From a virus (lineage: Duplodnaviria; Heunggongvirae; Uroviricota; Caudoviricetes), in the IMG/VR virus record IMGVR_UViG_3300029288_000055, positions 170,764-234,763 of that record: a stretch of DNA of 64,000 bases. The stretch is one strand, 5' to 3'. The notes beneath the pieces are model-generated. The model saw nothing but the letters and a program-made list of their open reading frames with translations, searched no databases and had not been told where the DNA came from. Below, one piece after another: positions 25,019-64,000 of the stretch. Both the position numbers and the translations under genes were made by a program. Each line of letters begins with the position of its first letter. The first letter of the stretch is position 1.

Positions 25019-25093
25019 ATGAAAAATTTAATAAACATAGTACCACAACCCCAACAGCATCCACAAAGTTTGGAATGGGGAAACTATGCTTAA
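25019..25093 (+). CDS. leader peptide A, MKNLINIVPQPQQHPQSLEWGNYA
   Basis: Eight consecutive Pro/Gln/His codons; located between promoter and terminator. Confidence 0.85.
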   Translation: MKNLINIVPQPQQHPQSLEWGNYA

Positions 25094-25124
25094 ATTTTTC
25101 ACAGGAAAATTTTTTAGGTTAGAC

Positions 25125-25155
25125 AAACCCCATTCATATTGAGTGGGGTTTTTTT
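25125..25155 (+). terminator. attenuator terminator A
   Basis: aaaccccattca-tat-tgagtggggttt plus T-tract; 5' arm complementary to leader gaatgggg (25073-25080). Confidence 0.85.
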
Positions 25156-29389: not shown

Positions 29390-29482
29390 ATGAAAAATTT
29401 ATTCGACATATTGGTAGCAGTCCTCATGGTGGATGTCCTATTATGGGCAGCCGAAGAGGATGATCTATGCGTAGTCGGGTAA
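29390..29482 (+). CDS. leader peptide B, MKNLFDILVAVLMVDVLLWAAEEDDLCVVG
   Basis: Residues 8-26 are all L/V/A/M/D/W/E. Confidence 0.85.
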   Translation: MKNLFDILVAVLMVDVLLWAAEEDDLCVVG

Positions 29483-29519
29483 TACTTTGAATATTACAAC
29501 CTCCTTTCTTATAAAAAAG

Positions 29520-29559
29520 AAACCCGACTACCCTAAATTTAGTCGGGTTTTTTGTTTTT
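29520..29559 (+). terminator. attenuator terminator B
   Basis: aaacccgacta/tagtcgggttt plus T-tract; 5' arm complementary to leader gtagtcgggt (29471-29480). Confidence 0.88.
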
Positions 29560-36219: not shown

Positions 36220-36583
36220 GGGGATGACTTGGCTTTGACTGAATGGTCAGACTGGTAACGTAAGCAAGTAGTAGTTGAATCAGACTACTTTAAAAAGGTT
36301 CAAAACAATAGATGAAGACATAATGTCTATCCCAACTTCTCTCACGAGAGGTAAAAGCGTTTTTGTAAGAAGTGCAGAACTTCAAATCGCTGCGTAAGCA
36401 AGGGACACGAAAAAATTTGCACAAAAGTTCCTAACTTGAAGGGAAGGTAAACAAATTCAAGACAGTTTTGTAGTTATTCTGGAATAATACAACTAATATT
36501 TCGCTGGCTTAGAAAAACCAGATAAACTTGTAGAAAACTTATTACTCGCATTCAAGACGGGGGTTCAACTCCCCCCATCTCCA
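36220..36583 (+). ncRNA. ssrA: tmRNA
   Basis: 5' GGGGATGACTTGGCTTTGAC, 3' GACGGGGGTTCAACTCCCCCCATCTCCA, G3:U70, internal tag ORF ending ...LQIAA-stop at 36397. Confidence 0.92.
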
Positions 36584-36598
36584 CTAATTTGAATTATT

Positions 36599-44080: not shown

Positions 44081-44173
44081 ATGAGAACATTTGGTACATA
44101 TTATTACGGTAAAAAATCTTATAAGAAACAGCTTATAGGAATCGGGAATACTATGACCAAAGGTAAAATATAA
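44081..44173 (+). CDS. leader peptide C, MRTFGTYYYGKKSYKKQLIGIGNTMTKGKI
   Basis: YYYGKKSYKK cluster. Confidence 0.85.
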   Translation: MRTFGTYYYGKKSYKKQLIGIGNTMTKGKI

Positions 44174-44202
44174 CTTTCGTACTTTTTTTCATAATTAAGA
44201 CT

Positions 44203-44234
44203 AACCCGATTCGCAAGATCGGGTTTTTTGTTTT
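44203..44234 (+). terminator. attenuator terminator C
   Basis: aacccgat-tcgcaag-atcgggtt plus T-tract; 5' arm complementary to leader gaatcggg (44139-44146). Confidence 0.85.
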
Positions 44235-51657: not shown

Positions 51658-54600
51658 ATGAGTTTATTATCCGAAAGTAAACGCTTTAATGATTTCACGC
51701 CAGAAGAGAAACGTCAAATATTTAATGTTTTCACACAATCATATGTAAAGGCAACTGGTGTTTCATGGGATGAAAGAAAATTTTATAGCAGGGCGGGAGA
51801 ATGGATATTTTTTGGCGACCCATTAGGATTTGTTACAGTCAGACCACAAAAAAGTGGGTTTTATAAGCTAACTGGTGTTGCTGGTAACCCAAAATCCATA
51901 TTAAGGAGCTTACAAGAACTCAATAGTACCAATTACCCAATATGGGGCATGCTTACAAAAGAACTTGCAAACATTTTAGTTAAAAGATATGGCTTCAGAA
52001 TGCCAAATAGACTTGAAGGATTTGTAATTGGTAAATTAATAACAAAGAATGTATTTGGAAATGTTGAATATACTCGTAATCCTGACGGTAGTTTAACATT
52101 TAAATATGGTGATGTCGGTGAAGCCACAAAAGTTTTCGTTGGCAATAGAGAATACTATAAAAAGATCAGACGTGATGCACTTAAAAGGGTATTTTCTCCA
52201 AAACAAGCAGTAAGCGAAGATGTTCTTACCGAAAAAAGAGCAATTGAACATTATTTTGAAGATAGTTTTAAGGCAGTATCAGAATATATAAGAAGATATG
52301 GTTATGAACACACATATGTTTCATTCAGACAAACAGCAAACACCACATTTATTAATCGTAGTAATAAATATAATACTCCGACAGGTTTTTATATGTATCC
52401 TTTGAAAAATTATCAAGAAAAAATTGCACAAAGTATTGACATGCAGAGTTTTATGAAAGCATTTCCATATACTCCTGAAAGTAAATTTGCTTTTCTTTTT
52501 ACAATAACAAATACTGAAAATTTCTTATCTTCATTAAATATTAATGTTGAAAAAATTCATAGATATGTAAAAAAAATTAAAGAATTATATGGCGAAAAAA
52601 AACCTGCAATCAAAACATTGTGTGATTTATATTTTACTACCGAAGGTTTTACACCAAGAGGAGGAAGCGATTATCAATATAAAAATGAATTTCAAAAATT
52701 TTGGTTATTTTTATATGAAATTGCATTTGAATTAAGAGCAAACAACACAACATACAATTCTGACAGAAGTTCAAGTCATTATAAAGAATATCCTTCAACA
52801 ATTACTATAATTGCAGACGATATTGGTCTTGAAGGATTTATTGATGATGCATGCACATCAACCATACATTCTGGTGAACCATGTCAAGGGGTTTTACTTA
52901 GTAATTTAAGAAAAAGTATTGGTAATTTGAAAATAGTACCAATATATCAAAAATATGATGCTCCATTAAATATTGATAATCCAAATGCGCCAACAGTTGA
53001 CCCATCAGAATATAAAAACAAATATGAAAAATATTTGAAAGGTAAATTAAATGCTAAAGAAGTTTATATTGCCGATAATAATTATCAATTAGCAATAAAA
53101 AATCGTTTACCATTTATTGTTATTGCAAATAGTTATACACCATATTATGTTGACAGGGATGGAAATAAAACTGTAAGAGGTCTTGATACAACAAAAATAC
53201 TTTCTAATGACCCACATGAGGATACATATGATGATACTTTAAAACAAAAACGTACTGCATATATTAATTCTTTATTGAATACAAAATATGATGAAGTGCG
53301 CCCATTTGGAAAATATGGTGGAGATGTTGCATTTGCAGTTCATGATAACGGAAGTTATGCATTTATTAATAAAGAAGGCAAACCAGATATTACAGGTGTT
53401 GATATTCTTAAAATTGGTGACGGTAAAACACGTGCAGTATATTTTAATCAATTACTTGGCAAAGAAATATTTGATCAAATTAATAGTTTTAGTGATTATG
53501 GCGGAGAAATTGCACTCGCACATCCACTTTCTGGTGGTCAATCATACTTTATTGATAAAATGGGTAATCCTGATATAATAAATGTAGATGTTACCAAAGT
53601 TAGTGATAGCAATACACGTGCAATAATTATAAACCAAAAATTAGGAAAAAAATATTATTATTCAATTGGTACATATAATAAATATGGTCAAGGTATTGCA
53701 GTTGCAACAAAAAATAATGGTGATAAAGTCTTTATTAATATTGAAGGTAAACCAAGTATTGCCAAGGTTAATATAAATAATATTGATGACGGTGATTTAC
53801 GTGCAATATATCTTAATCAGAGATTACATAAAAAAATCTTCAGTTTTATTGGTATATTTGATAAATTTGGTACAGGAATAGCATTAGGAAGATATATAGA
53901 TGGTACTTTAAAATTTGTAAATGCTTTAGGACAACCTGATCTTGAACATGTAGATTTTGATGCAATTGATGATACTAACACTCGTGCATTATATATAAAT
54001 CAAAAATATGGTACTGATTTTAAATCGGTTGGTATATTTGATAAAATTGGTGATGATGTAGCTCCTGCTGTTCGTGATGATGGTACAATCGAATTTATTA
54101 ATAGAGAAGGTAAACCAAGCATGGGTAATGTTGATATTAACAGAATTGACGATAGTCATGTTCGTGCACAATTTATAAATAAATTATTAGGTACTAATTA
54201 CACGCATGTTACAAAATTTGGTGAATTTGGTGGCGATATTGCACTTGCAGGTAATCGTGACACTAATACTCATGAATTTATTAATAGAGAAGGTAAACCA
54301 GATGTATCAACAGTTGATTTAGATAAAATCGGAGATAGAACAACAAGAGCAGTATATTTTAATCAAAAATATGGTACAGATTATAATGGTGTTTATGATT
54401 TTGGTACATACGGTAATGATGTCGCATTAGCATATAATAATGAAATAGGAAAAGTTTTTATTAACAGAGAAGGAATGCCAGATACTTCTGGTATAGAAGA
54501 AAAATATCTTGACGAACCACCTGTACATGCAGCATATTATAATCAAAAATTTGGCACACATTATGCTGAAATTAGTCCGTTTGGAGTATATGGCAAAGAT

Positions 54601-55191
54601 ATTGCAGTGGCTTCTGATGATAATGACAACAGAATGTTTATTAATAGGAAAGGTAAAAAAAGCACTATTGGTGTTAATGTAGATGAACTTACTGATTCAC
54701 TTCGTGTTGTATATTATAATCAAAAATTTAAGAAAAATTTTAAATCAATTGGTACTTTTGGTCAATATGGCGAAAATATTGCTGTTGCAAGAGATAAAGA
54801 CAATAAAAATGTTTTTATAAATAGAGAAGGTAAACCAGATGTTAGTGGTGTTGACCCTAATAGTATAAAAAATATGAATAGTAATATAAAAGCAGCATAT
54901 TTTAATACTATAAACGGTACTAATTTCACGGATATTTATGACTCTTTAACAAATAATCAAACCAATGTATTATTTGGAAGTTTACCAAGCGGTGGGTATG
55001 CTTTTATTAATAATAAAGGGAAACCAACAATAAAAATTAAAAATTTACAAATGCTTAAAGATCAATATGGCGAAAACACAGTTAATGATATAATTAAAAA
55101 TACAAAAAAAATATTAACTGGTGAACTTAAGGAAAATTATTCTATTTTACATTCAATTATAAATGAAGAAGTTATGAATTATTTTCAATAA
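51658..55191 (+). CDS. 1177 aa multidomain protein with about ten 60-aa WG-like repeats
   Basis: Repeated YxxxGxFGxYGxDIA...FINREGKPD; C-terminal SIINEE. Confidence 0.65.
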   Translation: MSLLSESKRFNDFTPEEKRQIFNVFTQSYVKATGVSWDERKFYSRAGEWIFFGDPLGFVTVRPQKSGFYKLTGVAGNPKSILRSLQELNSTNYPIWGMLTKELANILVKRYGFRMPNRLEGFVIGKLITKNVFGNVEYTRNPDGSLTFKYGDVGEATKVFVGNREYYKKIRRDALKRVFSPKQAVSEDVLTEKRAIEHYFEDSFKAVSEYIRRYGYEHTYVSFRQTANTTFINRSNKYNTPTGFYMYPLKNYQEKIAQSIDMQSFMKAFPYTPESKFAFLFTITNTENFLSSLNINVEKIHRYVKKIKELYGEKKPAIKTLCDLYFTTEGFTPRGGSDYQYKNEFQKFWLFLYEIAFELRANNTTYNSDRSSSHYKEYPSTITIIADDIGLEGFIDDACTSTIHSGEPCQGVLLSNLRKSIGNLKIVPIYQKYDAPLNIDNPNAPTVDPSEYKNKYEKYLKGKLNAKEVYIADNNYQLAIKNRLPFIVIANSYTPYYVDRDGNKTVRGLDTTKILSNDPHEDTYDDTLKQKRTAYINSLLNTKYDEVRPFGKYGGDVAFAVHDNGSYAFINKEGKPDITGVDILKIGDGKTRAVYFNQLLGKEIFDQINSFSDYGGEIALAHPLSGGQSYFIDKMGNPDIINVDVTKVSDSNTRAIIINQKLGKKYYYSIGTYNKYGQGIAVATKNNGDKVFINIEGKPSIAKVNINNIDDGDLRAIYLNQRLHKKIFSFIGIFDKFGTGIALGRYIDGTLKFVNALGQPDLEHVDFDAIDDTNTRALYINQKYGTDFKSVGIFDKIGDDVAPAVRDDGTIEFINREGKPSMGNVDINRIDDSHVRAQFINKLLGTNYTHVTKFGEFGGDIALAGNRDTNTHEFINREGKPDVSTVDLDKIGDRTTRAVYFNQKYGTDYNGVYDFGTYGNDVALAYNNEIGKVFINREGMPDTSGIEEKYLDEPPVHAAYYNQKFGTHYAEISPFGVYGKDIAVASDDNDNRMFINRKGKKSTIGVNVDELTDSLRVVYYNQKFKKNFKSIGTFGQYGENIAVARDKDNKNVFINREGKPDVSGVDPNSIKNMNSNIKAAYFNTINGTNFTDIYDSLTNNQTNVLFGSLPSGGYAFINNKGKPTIKIKNLQMLKDQYGENTVNDIIKNTKKILTGELKENYSILHSIINEEVMNYFQ

Positions 55192-55215
55192 TTGTGTAAA
55201 AAAATAATAAAATAA

Positions 55216-55246
55216 TTTGCAGAAATCAAAACTTTATTTACCTTTG
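55216..55246 (+). promoter_or_regulatory. Bacteroidota primary-sigma promoter, tRNA operon D
   Basis: TTTG(55216)-N19-TACCTTTG(55239). Confidence 0.8.
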
Positions 55247-55287
55247 CAGAGTATTTAAATGAAAATGAACTTATAATTTTAAAACAA

Positions 55288-55422
55288 ATGAAAACGTACA
55301 GGAAAATATCAGAAGATTCTACATCGACCTCAAGTCGCAATGGAAATGGTATATTCTGTTCAATTTTTACAGGCAGAAATAATGCAGATACGGGTTCTGG
55401 TTTTAAAGACATTGATTTGTAA
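55288..55422 (+). CDS. leader peptide D, MKTYRKISEDSTSTSSRNGNGIFCSIFTGRNNADTGSGFKDIDL
   Basis: Residues 11-32 are exclusively S/T/R/N/G/I/F/C. Confidence 0.85.
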   Translation: MKTYRKISEDSTSTSSRNGNGIFCSIFTGRNNADTGSGFKDIDL

Positions 55423-55441
55423 TTTTTAAAACTAATATAAG

Positions 55442-55473
55442 AAGAACCCGTATCGCAAGATTCGGGTTTTTTT
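55442..55473 (+). terminator. attenuator terminator D
   Basis: aagaacccgtatc-gcaa-gattcgggttttt plus T-tract; 5' arm perfectly complementary to leader gatacgggttct (55387-55398). Confidence 0.88.
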
Positions 55474-55486
55474 GTTCTTTACATAT

Positions 55487-55557
55487 GTCGGGATAGTTCA
55501 GGGGTAGAACGTCTGTGTGGTATTCAGGCAACATCGGTTCGAATCCGATTCTCGGCT
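55487..55557 (+). tRNA. tRNA-Thr(GGT)
   Basis: gtcggga/tctcggc, loop gtggtat. Confidence 0.78.
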
Positions 55558-55649
55558 CAAAAATATAACTCTTACAGGTTATAAACACAAAACATAACCT
55601 TTGCAGGTTATGCAAACTGTAAGACGATCTTTGACATGTTGGAATTTCT

Positions 55650-55730
55650 GAAGGGTTGCCTGAGTGGTTGAAAGGGACGGTCTGCAAAACCGTTAGGAAA
55701 CTCACGTGGGTTCGAATCCCACACCCTTCT
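55650..55730 (+). tRNA. tRNA-Cys(GCA), extended variable arm
   Basis: gaagggt/acccttc, acggt-ctgcaaa-accgt, U73. Confidence 0.85.
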
Positions 55731-55784
55731 CGAAAATTATTTTTGCATAAAGGACTGAAATTCGGTACTTTGTGCAAAAAATCT

Positions 55785-55859
55785 GTTTCGGTAGTGCAAT
55801 AATGGTAAAACGACAGTCTGTTAAACTGCAAGATGTAGGTTCGACTCCTACCCGAAACG
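55785..55859 (+). tRNA. tRNA-Asn(GTT)
   Basis: gtttcgg/ccgaaac, cagt-ctgttaa-actg, G73. Confidence 0.8.
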
Positions 55860-55865
55860 CAATAT

Positions 55866-55942
55866 TGGGACGTATTCCCTCTGTCTGATAAGCAGTTGAA
55901 AGGATAATTGGTCACATGTGGGTTCAATTCCCACCTTCCCAA
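55866..55942 (+). tRNA. tRNA-Ile(GAT)-like, lacking a D arm
   Basis: tgggacg/cttccca, ctgt-ctgataa-gcag, intact T arm, only about 7 nt between acceptor and anticodon stems. Confidence 0.55.
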
Positions 55943-55958
55943 CATAAAAATTTAAAAT

Positions 55959-56031
55959 GGGCGTATCGTCTAACTGGTTAGGATGTGTCTCTGATAAGGA
56001 TACGATGAAGGTTCAAGACCTTCTATGCCCA
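55959..56031 (+). tRNA. tRNA-Ile(GAT)
   Basis: gggcgta/tatgccc, tgtct-ctgataa-ggata. Confidence 0.82.
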
Positions 56032-56158
56032 CAAATCGCAGACGTGCGATCTTATGTTGCAACATAAAACGATTACTTATTGTTAGCATAGCTGGCAATG
56101 CTGCTCTGTGAATGGGTGAAGGTGAGTTCAAGTCTCACAGGTAAGAGTCGTTTTGTAT

Positions 56159-56245
56159 GGAGAGTTGTCCGAGTGGTTGATGGTGGCAGTCTTGAAAACT
56201 GCTGGGCACGCAAGTGCCCCGTGGGTTCGAATCCTACACTCTCCG
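56159..56245 (+). tRNA. tRNA-Ser(TGA)
   Basis: ggagagt/actctcc, gcagt-cttgaaa-actgc, long arm, G73. Confidence 0.92.
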
Positions 56246-56349
56246 CAAATTACAAATGGGAAAGTAGTTAGCGGTACTTAGTTGAGATAGTACTAAGTCG
56301 AGATGCACTGACCACTATTATCGAGTATAATAAAAAGTTTGTAATATTT

Positions 56350-56443
56350 GGATGGTTAAGCAGTTACATTGGAGTGGCGACATGCTTTGAATACATGGTT
56401 TCGATCTAAACAATCGGACGGGGGTCGGGTCCTCAATCATCCG
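56350..56443 (+). pseudogene. degenerate tRNA-Ser(TGA)-like element
   Basis: ggatggt/atcatcc, catg-c-tttgaat-a-catg, long arm, aberrant T loop. Confidence 0.45.
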
Positions 56444-56512
56444 CAGTGCTTTTGGTGTTAACTACTCACAACCGTTTAGCATTTATAATTATAATGGTAA
56501 AAGAGTAGACTT

Positions 56513-56599
56513 GGAGAATTGACAGAGTGGTTATTGTGCCAGTTTGCTAAACTGTGGGCGGTGAAAGCTGCCCCGGGGGTTCGAATCCCTCATTCTCCG
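56513..56599 (+). tRNA. tRNA-Ser(GCT)
   Basis: ggagaat/attctcc, cagt-ttgctaa-actg, long arm. Confidence 0.9.
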
Positions 56600-56673
56600 C
56601 AAAGTCAGGTGCACTGGATTACATCACTTGACCTATGTATCAATATGGTGGTCATGACACTATTGCGGTATAA

Positions 56674-56831
56674 AAGTTCTGGCTTGCATAAGAGGCTGCC
56701 CTAATGTTCGTTGAAGTGAAGGTTTTGTGTTTGTGACTGGCATCACAGAAAACGCAAACTGATTCAGAGAGACATTTAAGAAAGTTGCAATACTATCGGG
56801 AAACGTGAGTATAAGGCTCACACCAGAACTT
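56674..56831 (+). ncRNA. candidate rod-shaped structured RNA
   Basis: Closing stem aagttctgg/ccagaactt; inner stems aatgt/acatt, tttgtgttt/aaacgcaaa, gtga/tcac. Confidence 0.35.
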
Positions 56832-56836
56832 AATTT

Positions 56837-56908
56837 GGAACGGTAACTCAGTGGCAGAGTGCTTCCCTGAAGAGGAAGTGGTCGTGGGTTCGACTCCCAT
56901 TCGTTCCA
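56837..56908 (+). tRNA. tRNA-Phe(GAA), G37
   Basis: ggaacgg/tcgttcc, cttcc-ctgaaga-ggaag. Confidence 0.88.
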
Positions 56909-56914
56909 CAATTT

Positions 56915-56987
56915 GGTGTCGTAGCTCAGTTGGTAGAGCAGTGGACTGAAAATCCACGTGTCACAGGTTCAAATCCTGTCGATACCA
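56915..56987 (+). tRNA. tRNA-Phe(GAA)
   Basis: ggtgtcg/cgatacc, gtgga-ctgaaaa-tccac. Confidence 0.92.
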
Positions 56988-57102
56988 CTCTCTCCGATCT
57001 TGAGGGACTATCCACGTCCCCAATCCAAGGTTGCACGAAGCAAGAATGCCTCCTGCCTCTGTTGCAGGTGAATCCAAGAGGTTCAGCAAAAAGTCGTGGC
57101 AC

Positions 57103-57175
57103 GCAGAAGAAGCTCATGTGGTCGAGTGTCAGCCTTCCAAGCTGAATGTAGCGGGTTCGAATCCCGTCTTCTGCT
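57103..57175 (+). tRNA. tRNA-Gly(TCC)
   Basis: gcagaag/cttctgc, tcagc-cttccaa-gctga, U73. Confidence 0.9.
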
Positions 57176-57283
57176 CAACAATGCTTCCCACGCCTCTGAC
57201 CGATGCCTGTGCAGGTTAGGTTATGCGCATCAGGGTCGCTTTCAGTAGAACTCACTTAATGCACAACAAGTGAGTTCGCCCAT

Positions 57284-57355
57284 GCGGGTATAGCACAACG
57301 GTTAGTGTGTCAGTCTTCCAAACTGAAAATGAGGTTTCGATTACCTCTACCCGCA
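57284..57355 (+). tRNA. tRNA-Gly(TCC)
   Basis: gcgggta/tacccgc, tcagt-cttccaa-actga. Confidence 0.88.
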
Positions 57356-57419
57356 CAAAAATCCTTGTTAATCAAAAAAGAATCGCTATCTTTGTGTTTA
57401 GTTTATAAGATAGCAATAT

Positions 57420-57493
57420 AGTGACGTAGCTAAATGGTGACGGCAGTTGTCTTATAAGCAAAAGATGTGTGGGTTCAAGTCCCACCGTCACTA
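57420..57493 (+). tRNA. tRNA-Ile(TAT)
   Basis: agtgacg/cgtcact, ttgt-cttataa-gcaa, A73. Confidence 0.8.
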
Positions 57494-57497
57494 CAAA

Positions 57498-57707
57498 ATG
57501 AAAGAAATTAATTTGAAATTAGATCACGTACATGTTGAACCAAGAGTAATTAAAACAAATATTACTTGGAAAATTTGTGAATGTCTTTATGATTGCCTTG
57601 ATGATGAATGCGCACAAACACTTGGATTCAGTAACAAAGAAGAATACCGCAGAAAAATGAATAGCAAAAAAGGTTATAAAGAAGTGATCAAAATGATGGG
57701 TAAATAA
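57498..57707 (+). CDS. hypothetical protein
   Basis: ATG after the tRNA. Confidence 0.45.
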   Translation: MKEINLKLDHVHVEPRVIKTNITWKICECLYDCLDDECAQTLGFSNKEEYRRKMNSKKGYKEVIKMMGK

Positions 57708-57708
57708 T

Positions 57709-57780
57709 GCTTCGGTAGCTCAGTGGTAGAGCGTTTGTCTGTTAAACAAAGGGTCGCAGGTTCAATCCCTGCTCGGAGCG
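57709..57780 (+). tRNA. tRNA-Asn(GTT)
   Basis: gcttcgg/tcggagc, tttgt-ctgttaa-acaaa, G73. Confidence 0.9.
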
Positions 57781-57923
57781 CAAATTGAAATAAAAATGTT
57801 TGAATATTCAAAATTAACAGAAAAGCATTTTTTTTGGCTTAGAATTGTACAACTTTTAAATAAAAAGAATGAAAAAGTATTTATTCGTAGGGGAAGAAAG
57901 AAGTAAAATGGACACATAATTAT

Positions 57924-57997
57924 GCCAGAATAACTTTAATTGGTAGAGTAGCTCATTCGTAATGAGAATGTTGCAAGTTCGAGTCTTGCTTCTGGCT
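57924..57997 (+). tRNA. tRNA-Thr(CGT)
   Basis: gccagaa/ttctggc, ctca-ttcgtaa-tgag. Confidence 0.85.
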
Positions 57998-58053
57998 GGC
58001 AATCAATATCAACTTACTTGCACGTAGTGGTTGTTGCACATCAGAAATGATGA

Positions 58054-58719
58054 CTAAATGGTTGATGAGCGTTCTTTGATAATATTTATTATAATATCAA
58101 GATATTTTTGTGACGTTTCAATTTTAAAATATTTTTGTTTTGATGTGTCAATAATACATAAATTGATATCTTTTTCAATACATGCTTGAAATTTACGATT
58201 ATCATTATTTTGAATTTGATTAAGTTTATCTTGACCATAAATAGGTTCATAATGAAATACACCATTTAATTCAAATGCGAGTTTCAATGAAGGTATATAA
58301 ATATCCAATTCAGAATTAATGGCATCTTTATGATTGAATAATATTTTCAATTCGGGATATAATAACTTCAGTTGGTCTTCAAGAAATCTTTCAAGTTTCG
58401 ACCTGCGATTACCATTTGTTTTATGTTTATTATTATATGTTGCAGCACACGAATTTGAACAGAAATTATTTTTATGTATTTGGGATGGTATTTTATAAAA
58501 TAGTGTACCACAATTAATACACACAACTTCTTTCTTTGTTGTTCTACCAATACTTTTACATGTCTTAGAGCAGTATTTTCCAGTGCGTTGCCCATTTAAG
58601 ACTTTTAAAATATCTCGTTTGGACTTATAAAAAATACTTGAACATATTTCACATTCACATGGAAATTTATTGGTTATGTTTGACGTATCGAATTCTTCTT
58701 GGTCGTATAATGAAATCAT
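58054..58719 (-). CDS. free-standing endonuclease (Zn-finger repeats plus Vsr/DUF559-like nuclease)
   Basis: CEIC/YCSKTC/CINC/FCSNSC; SKLE...ELDIYIPSLKLAFELNGVFHY...DNRK. Confidence 0.75.
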   Translation of the reverse strand: MISLYDQEEFDTSNITNKFPCECEICSSIFYKSKRDILKVLNGQRTGKYCSKTCKSIGRTTKKEVVCINCGTLFYKIPSQIHKNNFCSNSCAATYNNKHKTNGNRRSKLERFLEDQLKLLYPELKILFNHKDAINSELDIYIPSLKLAFELNGVFHYEPIYGQDKLNQIQNNDNRKFQACIEKDINLCIIDTSKQKYFKIETSQKYLDIIINIIKERSSTI

Positions 58720-58794
58720 ATTATAATTTTATAATAAATACTTAAAAATTTTCGAAAAATTATTTTCGAATCTTCTTTTTGGCTCAAAATAAAT

Positions 58795-58881
58795 GCCTTC
58801 TTCCTATAGTTGGTCGATTAGACGGGATTTGTAACCCCGCTTTCCACAAGAAACACGTCAGTTCGAATCTGACAGAAGGCT
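58795..58881 (+). tRNA. tRNA-Thr(TGT), long variable arm
   Basis: gccttct/agaaggc, cggga-tttgtaa-ccccg. Confidence 0.8.
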
Positions 58882-58896
58882 CAAATACAAATAATT

Positions 58897-59199
58897 ATGA
58901 GAAACTATCATTTTAGTGAAAAAGAAATTGAAGAATTTTTGAAAAACAATAAAAAAGCAGGTTATGGTGAGCTTAATCATCCATCACCAAATCATGAAGA
59001 AAAGTTTTTAAAGAAACTTCAACTCAGAATGAAAAGTTTTGTTGATCTTACACCTTATTTTGTAAAAGTTGCAATTGTCACAATTATTGTGTTTCTTTGC
59101 TCAATGTTTGTATGGTACAGTTTTATGAGACCAGACAAAAGTAAACCAATAATTGAGAACATTATTGAACAATTTGAAAAGAAAAAAATGCCCTCATAG
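58897..59199 (+). CDS. hypothetical membrane protein
   Basis: One TM segment; stop codon lies inside the downstream tRNA. Confidence 0.5.
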   Translation: MRNYHFSEKEIEEFLKNNKKAGYGELNHPSPNHEEKFLKKLQLRMKSFVDLTPYFVKVAIVTIIVFLCSMFVWYSFMRPDKSKPIIENIIEQFEKKKMPS

Positions 59200-59261
59200 T
59201 TCAACGGATAGAACGGATGTCTTCTAAACAACAAATCGTGGTTCGATTCCACGTGGGGGTA
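59190..59261 (+). tRNA. tRNA-Arg(TCT)
   Basis: gccctca/tgggggt, loop cttctaa, A20. Confidence 0.88.
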
Positions 59262-59576
59262 CTAAAAAAATAAAAAATGAGAACTGTAATTTGTCCCAAA
59301 TGTAACCAAGTAATTGCAGTACCAGATCATAAAGATTTTGTGATTTGTTGTAATGAAGTAATTTATGCGCCTTATGAAACACACGATTGTAAAGATGCAA
59401 TACCCGATGGTGTATGTAGAAAATAAAAAAGAATTTTCAATGGAAGGTTATGCCTTTCTTGATGAAGCAGGAAATACAATAATAATTGTTTACGGAGAAG
59501 GACGCAGAGACGACATGGACAAGTATTTAACTAATGACGGTGATTTAATTAATATCAAATATAAAATTATTGATTT

Positions 59577-59931
59577 ATGCCAAAAACAAAAATCACAATA
59601 ACAATTGAAAGAGACTTTCCATTGAGTGATGAAGAAATTCAAATTGCAATGAATGATATTCAAGCAAAATTACAAGGTTATTATGAAAAAACACCTGACT
59701 GCCTGAAGAAAGTAAAAATGAGTATTGGTTACGATAAAAAATATAACAATGAATAGAGTAAAACTTACGATTAATATCGACAGCGAAAATGAATTAACCG
59801 AAGAACAAATTGTGGAAGCAATGGTTAATATGAAATTCAGATTAGAAGGTTATAGTACTCCATGTCCAGAATTTTTAAAGAATGCGGAAATAGCGATAGA
59901 TAAAAATTATAAAATAACAATGCTCCCATAG
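59577..59931 (+). other. tandem pair of small paralogous CDSs (59577-59756, 59749-59931)
   Basis: TKITITIERDFPLSDEEIQIAM..LQGY..TPDCLK versus VKLTINIDSENELTEEQIVEAM..LEGY..CPEFLK. Confidence 0.55.
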
Positions 59932-59993
59932 TCCAAGGGATAGGGCAACGGTTTCCTAAACCTTAAATGCAGGTTCGAGTCCTGCTGGGAGTA
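59922..59993 (+). tRNA. tRNA-Arg(CCT)
   Basis: gctccca/tgggagt, loop ttcctaa. Confidence 0.88.
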
Positions 59994-60106
59994 CGAAGAA
60001 TAAATTAATATGACACCAAATATTGAAGAATATCAAAAGAAATTAACATTAGAAATAAAAGTTATGACAGTAATTCTCATAATTGTTTTATTTTTGTGTT
60101 TATAAT

Positions 60107-60181
60107 GCCTTTGTAGCATAACGGATAATGCGCTTGTCTTCGAAACAAGGTCTTATGGGGGTTCGAGTCCCTTCAGAGGTA
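60107..60181 (+). tRNA. tRNA-Arg(TCG)
   Basis: gcctttg/cagaggt, cttgt-cttcgaa-acaag. Confidence 0.88.
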
Positions 60182-60306
60182 CAAAATGAAAAAGAAAAAA
60201 ATTATAACAGGAATTACTGTTGCTGAACAAATGCGTAGAGCAAGAAAAATATTAAAAGAACAAGTAATACCTAAAGAAAAATTATATCAAAAACTAAAAA
60301 ACAAAT

Positions 60307-60380
60307 GCTCTCATAGCATAATTGGATAATGCATTTCGCTACGAACGAAAAGAGTGGGGGTTCGAGTCCCTCTGGGGGTA
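60307..60380 (+). tRNA. tRNA-Arg(ACG)
   Basis: gctctca/tgggggt, tttcg-ctacgaa-cgaaa. Confidence 0.9.
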
Positions 60381-60394
60381 CTAATAAAAATAAA

Positions 60395-60888
60395 ATGGAT
60401 GAAGAAAAAGAAGTTGATGAATTATTTGAATTTCTTGCATCTTGGGGAGCACGAAATAATTTTAAATTTGTAGTGCCACATGATGACGAAAAAAATATTG
60501 ACTTTATCAATATTAATTTCAAAACCAATATTATTTATGTTGACGAATTAGGTATTGATGAACCATTAACTGAAGTTGGATAAAAAAAGTAAAAATATGA
60601 AGTATCTCAACACATCGTAATTATCAAGCTACTTTGATAAATGCGATTGAAATGTTATTTAGACAGACAAGTAGCAAAAAACAACTCGTACCAAAAGTAC
60701 CAACAGCAAATGAAGTGGGTATGAAGTACTGGTTGGTGGAAATCACGCTTACGGGTGGTGAAATCCAAAAGTTTTACGTTAGTGCCGAAACACGATTCTT
60801 TGCCGAAGAAAAGGCATATGAGTACACGTATTGGATGGCTAACGAGAAACTTAAAAATAAGTTGAGTACTTTTAGGCTTATGCCTTAA
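60395..60888 (+). other. two small hypothetical CDSs (60395-60583, about 60651-60888)
   Basis: ORFs between tRNAs. Confidence 0.45.
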
Positions 60889-60921
60889 AGGATTAAAATT
60901 GCAGAGGAAACTCTGCAACAT

Positions 60922-60995
60922 GCAGGTGTAGCATAGTGGTAGTGCGTTGGCTTGCCGAGCCGAGGACGAGGGTTCGATTCCCTTCACCTGCTCCA
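60922..60995 (+). tRNA. tRNA-Gly(GCC), G37
   Basis: gcaggtg/cacctgc, ttggc-ttgccga-gccga, U73, CCA. Confidence 0.9.
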
Positions 60996-61051
60996 ATTAA
61001 GTTCGAAAATCTTTTTTCGCATTTCACAGTATTTATGTTAAAGTAAATATT

Positions 61052-61729
61052 ATGAAATGGTTAAAAGAAGATGTCGAAAAAGCAATTGTACTTCATACGG
61101 AAGGAAAAAGGTTTCAAGAAATTGCAGAAGCATTAAATAGAAATTTTAGGTGTGTTCAGATAAAATTAAATAAACTTGGATACCATCAAAATTATGTCGA
61201 GACCAAAGAAATCAAAGCGTGTCTTAACTGCGGTAATGTGTTCACATCGTTAATAAGTAAAAACAGAAGATTTTGTTCACAGTCATGTGGTGCAGAATAT
61301 AACAATAGAAAATACCCCAAACGAGCCAACATAAACAAACTGAAAAATTGTTTACATTGCGGTCAGCCATTAAATTCACATCAAACAAAATTTTGCTCAC
61401 CCAAATGTAGTGGCGAATATTTTCAACAAGAAAATTTCAAGAAAATTGAAAATGGGGATGTGTCATTTCCCGCTACAATGTATAAAAAGTACCTCATACA
61501 TAAGCACGGTAATAAGTGTATGAAATGTGGATGGCATGAAGTTAATATGGTTACGGGTTTAGTGCCAATTCAGTTAGAGCATAAAGATGGTAATTCTGAA
61601 AATCATAATTTAAATAATTTGGAGTTACTGTGTCCTAATCATCATTCATTAACCCCGACATTTGGTGCATTGAATAAGAGTAACGGCAGGACTAAAAGAA
61701 GGGAAAAAAGAAAATCATTTGCATATTAG
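61052..61729 (+). CDS. HNH endonuclease with Zn-finger repeats
   Basis: CLNC/FCSQSC/CLHC/FCSPKC; QLEHKDGNSENHNLNNLELLCPNHH. Confidence 0.85.
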   Translation: MKWLKEDVEKAIVLHTEGKRFQEIAEALNRNFRCVQIKLNKLGYHQNYVETKEIKACLNCGNVFTSLISKNRRFCSQSCGAEYNNRKYPKRANINKLKNCLHCGQPLNSHQTKFCSPKCSGEYFQQENFKKIENGDVSFPATMYKKYLIHKHGNKCMKCGWHEVNMVTGLVPIQLEHKDGNSENHNLNNLELLCPNHHSLTPTFGALNKSNGRTKRREKRKSFAY

Positions 61730-61769
61730 AAAATTTAATGCAATATTTGCAGTATAAATAATTTAAATT

Positions 61770-62048
61770 ATGAAAACAAAAAAATTCTTTAAAGGAAAAC
61801 TAATTAAATTAGTGATTGAAAATTTTTGTAAATGTGATTTTGCTTGGATTTCACAAACCACATTGCAGGAATATTTGGATAAACATCTGTCATTTAAAAC
61901 AGAAGTTTCGAATTTCACGCAGGATGAAGATAAGTTTACAAAAAATGCTCAAATAAAATTCACTGATGAAGATAATAAATTTCGTGTAATTGATATTCAT
62001 GTTGCACAAATCGAAAAATCAGTTAACGAACTTGTGGCAATACAATAG
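61770..62048 (+). CDS. hypothetical protein
   Basis: 92 aa ORF. Confidence 0.5.
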   Translation: MKTKKFFKGKLIKLVIENFCKCDFAWISQTTLQEYLDKHLSFKTEVSNFTQDEDKFTKNAQIKFTDEDNKFRVIDIHVAQIEKSVNELVAIQ

Positions 62049-62063
62049 ACCTACCCGCCACAC

Positions 62064-62318
62064 AAAAAATAACAAAGAGGATTCATCGCTGCGTGCCATT
62101 GCCATTAGTTGCATTGAACCTGCAGAGGAACTTCAGAACATCGCTGCTTAATGCGGGAGCATAAATATCTACGGCAATGCTGTAAGGAGAATATGCGTTA
62201 ATACCGCAGAGGATGCAAGCCAAATTTGCTTAGTCGGTGAGCAGGACGTAAAGCGTGGTTGGTGCATAGATAAATGATGAAATAAAACAAAATTCTGGGT
62301 ACGCTCATGTTATTTTTT
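62064..62318 (+). ncRNA. rnpB: minimal RNase P RNA
   Basis: P1 aaaaaataaca/tgttatttttt; P2 ttcatc/gatgaa; CR-I GAGGAACTTCAGA pairs with CR-V AACAAAATTCTGGGTA to give P4 with a bulged U; TAGATAAATGA (CR-IV). Confidence 0.8.
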
Positions 62319-62366
62319 GAAATTTTTTAGTATGTAGTAATAATTATAGTTATCTTTGCAATTATT

Positions 62367-62954
62367 ATGAAATACACAAAATATTTAATAAACGGAAAAT
62401 TTGTTGATATTGATTCTTTACAAACAAATAATTTTTATTTTAAAATACCAATAAGATTAATTAGCATATCAGTTGCATTTATGGGAATTACCATAATACT
62501 TGGAGTATTACCAATGGCTTTAATAGTTGATGAATATCGAAACACTAAATGTAGATTAATTCATTTTAAAAGAAATAAATATAAATTGTAACTATTATCA
62601 AATATTATTCGTATAATAATGTATAATTAAAATAATTAATCAATGGCAACATTATTACAAAAAGATGTTAAGCGTGAAACATTCGCAGTTATGGATATGA
62701 AAGGAAATAAAATGATTGTTACATTAAAAGCGGGTGATAACGTTGAATTCAGACCAAAAGGCAAAAGATATAAATATGAAGTACCACTTGCAGCATGTTT
62801 TAATCTTGCAATGATTTATACGGCAAGCGAACGCTATAAAGAACGAATAAAAAGATATGAAGAAGGTCGTAAAGAAGGTCGTAAAATGAAACGTCCAAAA
62901 CTGATGCCAAAAATATTTAATGAAAAACTATACCAAGCATTGAAATTAATTTAG
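62367..62954 (+). other. two hypothetical CDSs (62367-62591, 62643-62954)
   Basis: ORF track; promoter-like motifs upstream of each. Confidence 0.5.
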
Positions 62955-62999
62955 TATATTTGCAACATGAAAAACTTTTTAATTAATTTTTGAATAAAA

Positions 63000-63739
63000 T
63001 GAAACTATTTGAAAAATTTAAAATGACGACCCAAAGCGATTTGGAGAAAGTAAAATCAGCATTAAAAGCAAGTCCTATTTGCAAATCAATGAATGATTTA
63101 AGAGAATCTAAACTTGATACTGATGGCAATGGTAAGATAACTCGTATTTGGTTAAATCCACATAATCAGAAGTGTTTTAATTGGGGTTGGTTTGTACATC
63201 AAGACTTTTTTGACTGGACACAAGGCAAAGGTAAGATTATTAAAGGTAAAACCGATGAAGAAAAAAAGAAATTTTGGGATGTGGCAATGTTTGAATTACA
63301 ACATGATTATGCATGGGCAATTGGTTACAATAAAAAATATTTTGATTGCATCGATGAAACTTATCATCCAAAATCAAAACCGAATTATTATAGTATTGAA
63401 AGGTATGTTGAAAAACCATTGAAGATTACCAAAACCAATCACGAAGAAATTATTGCAAAAGTATTTGGTGATATTTGTGCATATTATAGCGATACCGAAT
63501 TAACTTATGAATCAAATCTTCACAGAAGAATTCGTAATGAAGTCGATGGTGCAAAACAAGTATTATTTGCATTGGGCGTTGGTTATTATGGCGCATGCAA
63601 CACTCCTGAAGAGCCATTAAACCTTTCTTGGGTTTCAGATATTTGCATTTATAAAGCAGTATATTTGTATTTTCTAAAAAATAATGTACCTTTGCCAGAC
63701 TTTGATTTCGTTTACAACTATAAAGATCAAGTAAAATGA
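63000..63739 (+). CDS. hypothetical protein
   Basis: Long ORF, followed by another ORF (from 63736) that runs off the right edge. Confidence 0.55.
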
Positions 63740-64000
63740 ATTTTGAAATGTGGGAAATATTAGTACCTGCCTCTAATAACAGAGACCAAGAATTTTCATA
63801 TGAACATCATAAGAAATGGGATGCTTTTGTGAAAGAAATCACTGGTGGTGTCACTATCATGAAAACTGCAAAAGGTGAATGGGTCAGTCCAAATGGAAAA
63901 ATTTACATTGATAAAATGATTCCTTGCAGAATTATTTGTAATGAAAATCAAATAAAAGAAATTATTGATTTCACACTAATACATTACAATCAGGAAGCAG

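Follow-up and report, generated by a model that had tools for sequence, protein, structure and literature searches.

A short open reading frame (ORF), leader D, precedes an array of 20 tRNA genes (array D) in a 64,000-nucleotide stretch of a tailed phage genome (positions 170,764 to 234,763 of the IMG/VR record IMGVR_UViG_3300029288_000055; hereafter the window). We propose that leader D is very probably a ribosome-mediated transcription attenuator, predicted from its sequence and from modelling to report a shortage of usable cognate tRNA, and whose output is the tRNA genes themselves. The proposal starts from what can be observed in the leader, namely its anatomy, the match of its composition to the array, its conservation and the geometry of the modelled switch. 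The initial annotation had already read an attenuator at this site, and this reading is supported by the conserved parts, by the modelled switch point, by a four-way partition of the genetic code among leaders of this kind and by the tracking of array content by leader composition in distant phages.

Composition and codon content of leader D

The sensor run of leader D holds, as had been claimed, all eight isotypes Ser, Thr, Arg, Asn, Gly, Ile, Phe and Cys and nothing else, an ATA codon being included, and the 20 downstream tRNAs called by ARAGORN all belong to the same eight isotypes, including tRNA-Ile(TAT) at 57420. The control codons match in this way the product of the downstream genes. 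With a share of 43.7% of the phage proteome for these residues, a run of 22 has a p of ~2.7e-7 (0 of 200,000 simulations), and amino acids permuted among the arrays reproduced the match in 7 cases per million. At the codon level, codons 2-32 offer a cognate codon for 15 of the 16 anticodon species of the array against 12.1 expected from phage codon usage (P=0.006), Arg(TCG) being the single species left uncovered; codons 11-32 alone cover 13 against 11.3 expected, which is not significant (P=0.12). A single leader would sense eight amino acids and 15 anticodon boxes. The small hairpin located within the sensor run is weak alone (-4.4 kcal/mol, z -1.1) and nearly invariant, and hence has no covariation support. 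An alternative-frame ORF starting at 55340, also listed by the locus finder described below, was rejected as the leader for its lack of cognate composition.

The antiterminator/terminator switch

The 5' strand of a mutually exclusive antiterminator was found in silico within the leader, just past the control codons; antiterminator and terminator compete for the common arm 55443-55454. The perfect 12-nucleotide pairing with the terminator 5' arm noticed in the initial annotation is present, 55387-55398 being the exact reverse complement of that arm, as is the T-T mismatch of the terminator, which corresponds to U-U at 55451/55462. The comparison of both folds gave -25.8 kcal/mol for the antiterminator (z -6.0) and -16.0 kcal/mol for the terminator when the A/U extension is counted (core alone, -8.0). 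The idea that these two features represent a conserved tuning did not stand: in the homologues the antiterminator helix usually runs for 6-9 bp without interruption and reaches at least 12 in 5 of 70, no mismatch interrupts the stem in 27 of 69 homologous terminators, and in silico removal of the mismatch preserves the switch, with a terminator more stable by 4.7 kcal/mol and a leakier ON state. The terminator, placed before the first tRNA, is the sole GC-rich one seen by the finder in 55000-64000.

In order to model the switch, the RNA under the ribosome was masked with footprints of +8 to +13. The modelled probability of termination is ~0 with the A site at codon 30 or earlier and at least 0.9 from codon 33, the flip shifting between codons 30 and 33 across the footprints. 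Without translation, D RNA is predicted to adopt the antiterminator fold (P ~1), and a protector hairpin is absent; such a hairpin is not universal among leader-peptide attenuators. Whole-transcript equilibrium folding is uninformative for many homologues, and transcripts ending after the 5' arm were therefore folded instead. In these, the arm stays sequestered for as long as the ribosome remains within the cognate run, a result obtained in each of the 13 D leaders tested.

Conservation among homologous leaders

Relatives were retrieved from IMG/VR by means of the RNA ligase together with the leader, and metagenome homologues by means of a nine-residue core pattern, yielding 70 distinct D leaders and 80 metagenome matches found by the peptide core alone. 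The core being the search pattern, its conservation is not evidence; outside it, an in-frame ATG is kept in 80/80, the -7 box of the promoter in 76/79 and the terminator in 73/74. The fraction of cognate residues is 0.89 in the eight codons before the core and 0.90 after it, falling to 0.58 in the tail, and anticodon coverage in the 70 homologues averages 14.4 vs 12.1, all 70 lying above their own expectation (the homologues are not independent).

The constraint extends to synonymous choice. Codons that are uncommon in the phage are fixed by position, namely AGT (70/70), ATA (60/60), TTC (68/69) and GGC (68/70), with respective phage usages of 34%, 32%, 20% and 13%; in seven phage pairs, the codon of a conserved residue is identical in 98 of 116 cases in the sensor vs 1000 of 1690 in the RNA ligase of those pairs. 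In 52/70 leaders the antiterminator core lies 14 or 17 nt past a fixed reference point where the run ends, and its flanks covary with the arm, in 257 of 400 pairs vs 226.7 +/- 5.5 in shuffled controls.

Downstream of the homologous leaders, 530 of the 566 tRNA calls belong to the eight isotypes and 18 more are genes with a CAT anticodon, many of them in the Ile(TAT) slot. A CAT-anticodon tRNA fills this slot between the Gly/Thr and Asn genes in the relatives L040, L062, L076, L096 and others. It is probably a lysidine-type Ile2 tRNA, and two routes for reading ATA would then alternate in the clade.

Four leaders partition the genetic code

A finder requiring an ORF, a complement to a terminator arm and a terminator was run on both strands of the 363-kb contig to which the window belongs (contig C1). 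It yielded four loci in the window and one further weak hit on all of C1. The four leaders (A to D) divide among them 3+7+2+8 amino acids, that is all 20, each once, and each leader matches its own array; a joint permutation of all four reproduced this in 0 per million. In all four, the switch point of the model falls where the cognate run ends, and the same co-transcriptional switch at the run end was obtained for nearly all A, B and C leaders. A T4-type RNA ligase gene adjoins array C, which is exactly Lys/Tyr.

Further observations concern block B. The sequence ACCTCCTTTCT (29497-29510), which we take to resemble the 3' end of Bacteroidota 16S rRNA, lies between the stop codon of leader B and its terminator, and the same or a near variant occurs in 6 of 7 B leaders. 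The phage tmRNA inside the block (36220-36584), which relatives also conserve, has a tag peptide of unusual length. In the B leader of L009 the internal Met codon is absent and no Met tRNA is called in the block, and L016 has the Met codon and no Met tRNA; the co-loss of codon and tRNA is a single, mixed case.

Leaders of distant huge phages

Two distant huge phages, LR745206 and LR756500, which presumably come from the Al-Shayeb et al. 2020 study, were found through their ribonucleotide reductase (RNR). Their tRNA genes are grouped differently, with blocks of His/Phe/Trp/Lys, Arg/Ser, Glu/Tyr, Ile/Gly/Ala, Asn/Arg/Leu/Val/Ile/Thr/Met and Pro/Asp/Gln in LR745206, and of His/Glu/Val/Trp/Leu, Lys/Met/Phe, Asn/Asp/Arg and Ala/Leu/Pro/Tyr/Gln/Gly/Thr in LR756500. 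Each block is preceded by a short ORF and a terminator, the ORFs being unrelated to D in sequence and enriched in the residues of their own block. The ten outside leaders were in part chosen by visual inspection, as the ORF that precedes the terminator. Their true pairing with the arrays is the best among all 3,628,800 permutations (exact), and of 14 leaders 13 obtain their top score with the array that they head. LR745206 also has an Asn-rich leader, with its terminator and antiterminator, in front of a class II (D/K/N) tRNA synthetase gene (L068:42-1364), probably AsnRS, which links the design to the classical synthetase attenuators.

Promoter, translation start and host

Leader D lies between a promoter and the tRNA genes that it would regulate. 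The promoter agrees perfectly with the Bacteroidota consensus (PMC6847099), and the start region of the leader is A-rich, with A at -6, -12 and -13, and devoid of a Shine-Dalgarno sequence; position -3 is A in 58/70 homologues and C in leader D. The host is probably a member of the Bacteroidota because of this perfect TTTG-19 nt-TAnnTTTG promoter and A-rich start, the assignment coming from these signals and not from spacers. A generic scan for promoters and terminators missed both elements, since it used the E. coli consensus and permitted no stem mismatch.

Close to the promoter lies a GTATTTA motif, found upstream of C1 genes in the sense orientation in 58 vs 17 antisense of 303, its TATTTA core being present in 79/79 homologues. 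The motif GTATTTAT is also strand-biased upstream of C1 genes (55 vs 11 of 303), with window sites at 55251 and 61029, and is a candidate promoter for a phage sigma factor; two sigma70-family proteins are encoded on C1 (at C1 34194 and 268308).

Table 1. Features of the leader D region and its sister attenuators (window coordinates).
Feature	Position	Strand	Remarks
Sister attenuator A, Pro/Gln/His leader	25019..25155	+	Precedes Pro/His/Gln array
Sister attenuator B, Asp/Glu/Val/Leu/Ala/Trp/Met leader	29390..29553	+	Precedes matching array, which also holds the tmRNA
Sister attenuator C, Lys/Tyr leader	44081..44229	+	Precedes Lys/Tyr array
Bacteroidota sigma-ABfr-type promoter	55216..55246	+	-33 TTTG 55216-55219, 19-nt spacer, -7 TAnnTTTG 55239-55246
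GTATTTA motif, candidate phage-sigma promoter element	55251..55257	+	Sense-strand enrichment upstream of C1 genes; putative function
Leader ORF D, 44 codons	55288..55422	+	ATG 55288 to TAA 55422; in-frame ATG in 80/80 homologues
Sensor run, codons 11-32	55318..55383	+	22 consecutive Ser/Thr/Arg/Asn/Gly/Ile/Phe/Cys codons
Small conserved hairpin within sensor, candidate RNA polymerase pause hairpin	55354..55378	+	RNAalifold consensus, 36 homologues
Antiterminator	55387..55454	+	55387-55398 pairs with 55443-55454; inner A/U-rich helix 55399-55408 with 55424-55433
Intrinsic terminator	55440..55473	+	Stem 55447-55454/55459-55466, U-U mismatch 55451/55462, U-tract 55467-55473
tRNA array D, 20 genes, 16 anticodon species	55487..60995	+	Thr, Cys, Asn, Ile, Ser, Phe, Gly, Arg; interspersed small ORFs

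Proposed mechanism and alternatives

In the mechanism that we propose, host RNA polymerase would initiate at the Bacteroidota-type promoter and a ribosome would translate leader D. When usable tRNAs are ample, the ribosome would pass approximately codon 31 and cover 55387-55398, leading to formation of the terminator and to a stop before the first tRNA. When any cognate tRNA is short, either cleaved, uncharged or a rare isoacceptor, the ribosome would lag in the sensor run and 55387-55398 would capture the terminator 5' arm, with the consequent transcription of array D. The new tRNAs would speed decoding, closing a negative feedback on the usable tRNA pool, and four such units together would cover the whole genetic code. 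We infer here that the leader is translated, that termination occurs in vivo, that ribosome and polymerase are coupled in the host and that all 20 genes are co-transcribed. The selected signal and natural trigger would be tRNA loss, for example through host anticodon nucleases, or a rare host isoacceptor, because extra tRNA helps if tRNA is limiting and hardly if the amino acid is missing. The known anticodon nucleases and phage tRNA counter-measures (PMC11555353, PMC10264068) and the RNA ligase beside array C fit a trigger of this type.

Several observations speak against this proposal or reduce the weight of its evidence. Six-frame translation of the contig gives four further runs of at least 22 of the eight residues, and therefore the run of leader D counts by its position. 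Codons 2-10 of the leader include Lys, Tyr, Glu and Asp, and array D contains Arg(TCG), yet CGA and CGG are absent from the leader. In many homologues the pure run is shorter (7-31 residues, at least 22 in 19/70), with Asp and Glu intruding, and the internal hairpin may account for part of the codon constraint. The covariation counts of antiterminator flanks and arm are uncorrected for relatedness, and the selection of outside leaders partly by eye bears likewise on the permutation result. Equilibrium folding of the full transcript favours the terminator in many homologues even with a stalled ribosome, and therefore the modelled switch would there need the antiterminator to form first. Direct evidence on transcription-translation coupling in Bacteroidota was not found in the literature searched. 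Finally, a possible internal promoter at 57387 could separately drive the distal tRNAs. Promoter-like sites are seen there and elsewhere, and no further GC-rich terminator up to 64000; as a conserved feature the 57387 promoter was rejected, being absent from 26 homologous sites.

An improbable alternative, though the best placed of those considered, is that the switch is real and reports a general failure of translation, either no initiation or any stall, the codon match merely adding sensitivity. The untranslated RNA, by forming the antiterminator, would be ON by default with no trpL-like protector hairpin, and in the simple model stalls at codons 2-10 (Lys, Tyr, Glu, Asp) also permit read-through. 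Such a sensor would render pointless the four disjoint leader compositions and their re-sorting in other phages; it is nevertheless compatible with the sensing of cognate tRNA as the best explanation. Very improbable is a sequence-dependent arrest peptide or small protein of the TnaC/ErmCL type, sensing a metabolite or a drug. The order of the D peptide core is strongly conserved, as such a peptide would demand, but this core was the search pattern, synonymous codons are fixed as well (AGT, ATA and GGC in the proportions given above), substitutions outside the core remain within the eight residues, and the unrelated leaders of other phages track array content. We give hardly any credit to a constitutive terminator, or one overridden by a phage protein in the style of lambda N/Q, with the short ORF being incidental: antitermination is common in phage late programmes and a phage-type promoter motif overlaps the start site, but the composition match, the conserved reading frame and the fixed spacing, 14 or 17 nt in 52/70 leaders, between the last cognate codon and the antiterminator would all be left unexplained.

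Array D and its genomic setting

The Rfam gathering score is passed by 18 of the 20 tRNAs of array D; Ser(TGA) at 56076 is degenerate (17.6 bits) and Thr(TGT) at 58795 has an unusual long variable arm. Four atypical or degenerate tRNA-like elements were noticed in the array (55866-55943, 56076-56146, 56353-56443 and 58795-58882), of which one is an Ile(GAT)-like gene that was not called, two are odd genes resembling Ser(TGA) and one is the long-armed Thr(TGT); relatives have duplicated odd copies as well. Beyond the array (C1 236173-237385) lie Ser(GCT), Met(CAT) and a CTA-anticodon, amber suppressor-like tRNA, which recur in relatives. HNH homing-endonuclease-like genes are found antisense inside the array (58054-58719, minus strand) and after it (61052-61729, plus strand). 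Directly upstream of the leader D promoter (51658-55191) a 1177-aa protein with internal repeats of ~60 residues is encoded, for which no Pfam match was obtained.

C1 (362,763 bp, 30.5% GC) is part of a 1.27-Mb assembly, and encodes a Gp23-type major capsid protein and a terminase, together with 55 tRNA calls and a tmRNA; RNA polymerase beta was looked for on C1 and none was found. These characters, capsid and terminase on more than 200 kb without a cellular RNA polymerase, are those of a huge tailed phage, and a bacterial chromosome as the source of the window was rejected on the same grounds. The other contigs of the assembly are mostly of 32-43% GC with their own scattered tRNA set, and we infer that C1 is a huge phage binned together with a small bacterial genome. 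The assembly holding this phage contig carries a 100% completeness score, and the tRNA-free contig C6 (60 kb, 29.9% GC) may be more phage DNA. The best matches of the RNR are uncultured phages (63%, 61% and 54%), followed by crAss-like Bacteroides phages (39%), and blastn of array D against annotated phages returned single-tRNA matches only.

Relation to known systems and implications

The multivalent thrL and ilvGMEDA leaders, and pheM before pheST, are leader-peptide attenuators. Leader D shares with leaders of the trpL type (PMC6614838) the short ORF, the control codons, the mutually exclusive antiterminator and intrinsic terminator and the proposed coupling of cognate stalling to read-through, and differs from them in that it would regulate tRNA genes, in being phage-borne, in the eight amino acids and 15 anticodon boxes that one leader would sense, in lacking the protector hairpin and in the partition of the code among four leaders. 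In the absence of translation trpL terminates (PMC6614838), unlike the D RNA, which is predicted to be ON. In Rfam the leader families stay below threshold for D (Thr_leader 22.6 of 55 bits, trpB motif 26.3 of 59), a result which lowers the case for membership of those named families only and is to be expected for a non-homologous leader. The T-box riboswitch (PMC7583486) is likewise a terminator/antiterminator switch reading tRNA status; it binds tRNA directly through a specifier codon and independently of translation, unlike D, and no T-box, with its stem I, specifier loop and antiterminator bulge, was found by Rfam in the window. Leader D is thus a device with the sequence-level characters of the trpL, thrL and ilv leaders, homologous to no Rfam family, and is not a T-box.

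The L-array trn operon of Anabaena (PMC8421152) resembles D as a silent tRNA array induced on impaired translation, but is one cellular array and not a set of codon-matched blocks, and PMC8421152 mentions no leader or attenuation. The T5-like tRNA-Tyr counters the retron Eco7 PtuAB and tRNA-Lys counters PrrC (PMC11555353), and phage tRNAs resistant to anticodon nucleases have been described (PMC10264068). Such tRNAs share with D the likely purpose of refilling a depleted tRNA pool; their expression, unlike that of D, is ascribed to a strong promoter, and a feedback sensor is undescribed. The huge phages of Al-Shayeb et al. 2020 (PMC7162821) also carry many tRNA genes (up to 67) along with synthetases and genes for tRNA repair, and the main text leaves leaders and attenuation unmentioned. 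Published attenuation of tRNA genes or phage tRNA arrays was not found in the literature searched, most subscription journals lying outside its coverage.

The reason why phages carry tRNAs has been open for more than 50 years (PMC10264068). If tRNA genes are transcribed only while decoding of their own codons is slow, this would point to replacement of a depleted pool and not to constant codon compensation, and each leader would be a ready reporter for the loss of specific tRNAs in infection. Leader composition can also predict or check tRNA identity, as for the CAT genes in the Ile(TAT) slot, which accompany an invariant ATA in the leader. We consider it fairly likely that this is a widespread phage system, in which tRNA operons are each gated by a leader sampling the anticodons supplied, so that every decoding box of the host would be monitored and only the block lost to host defence or stress replaced, the partition being re-drawn between lineages and the leaders re-written to match. 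Attenuation would in this manner extend from amino-acid and synthetase genes to tRNA genes, in the form of a feedback loop.

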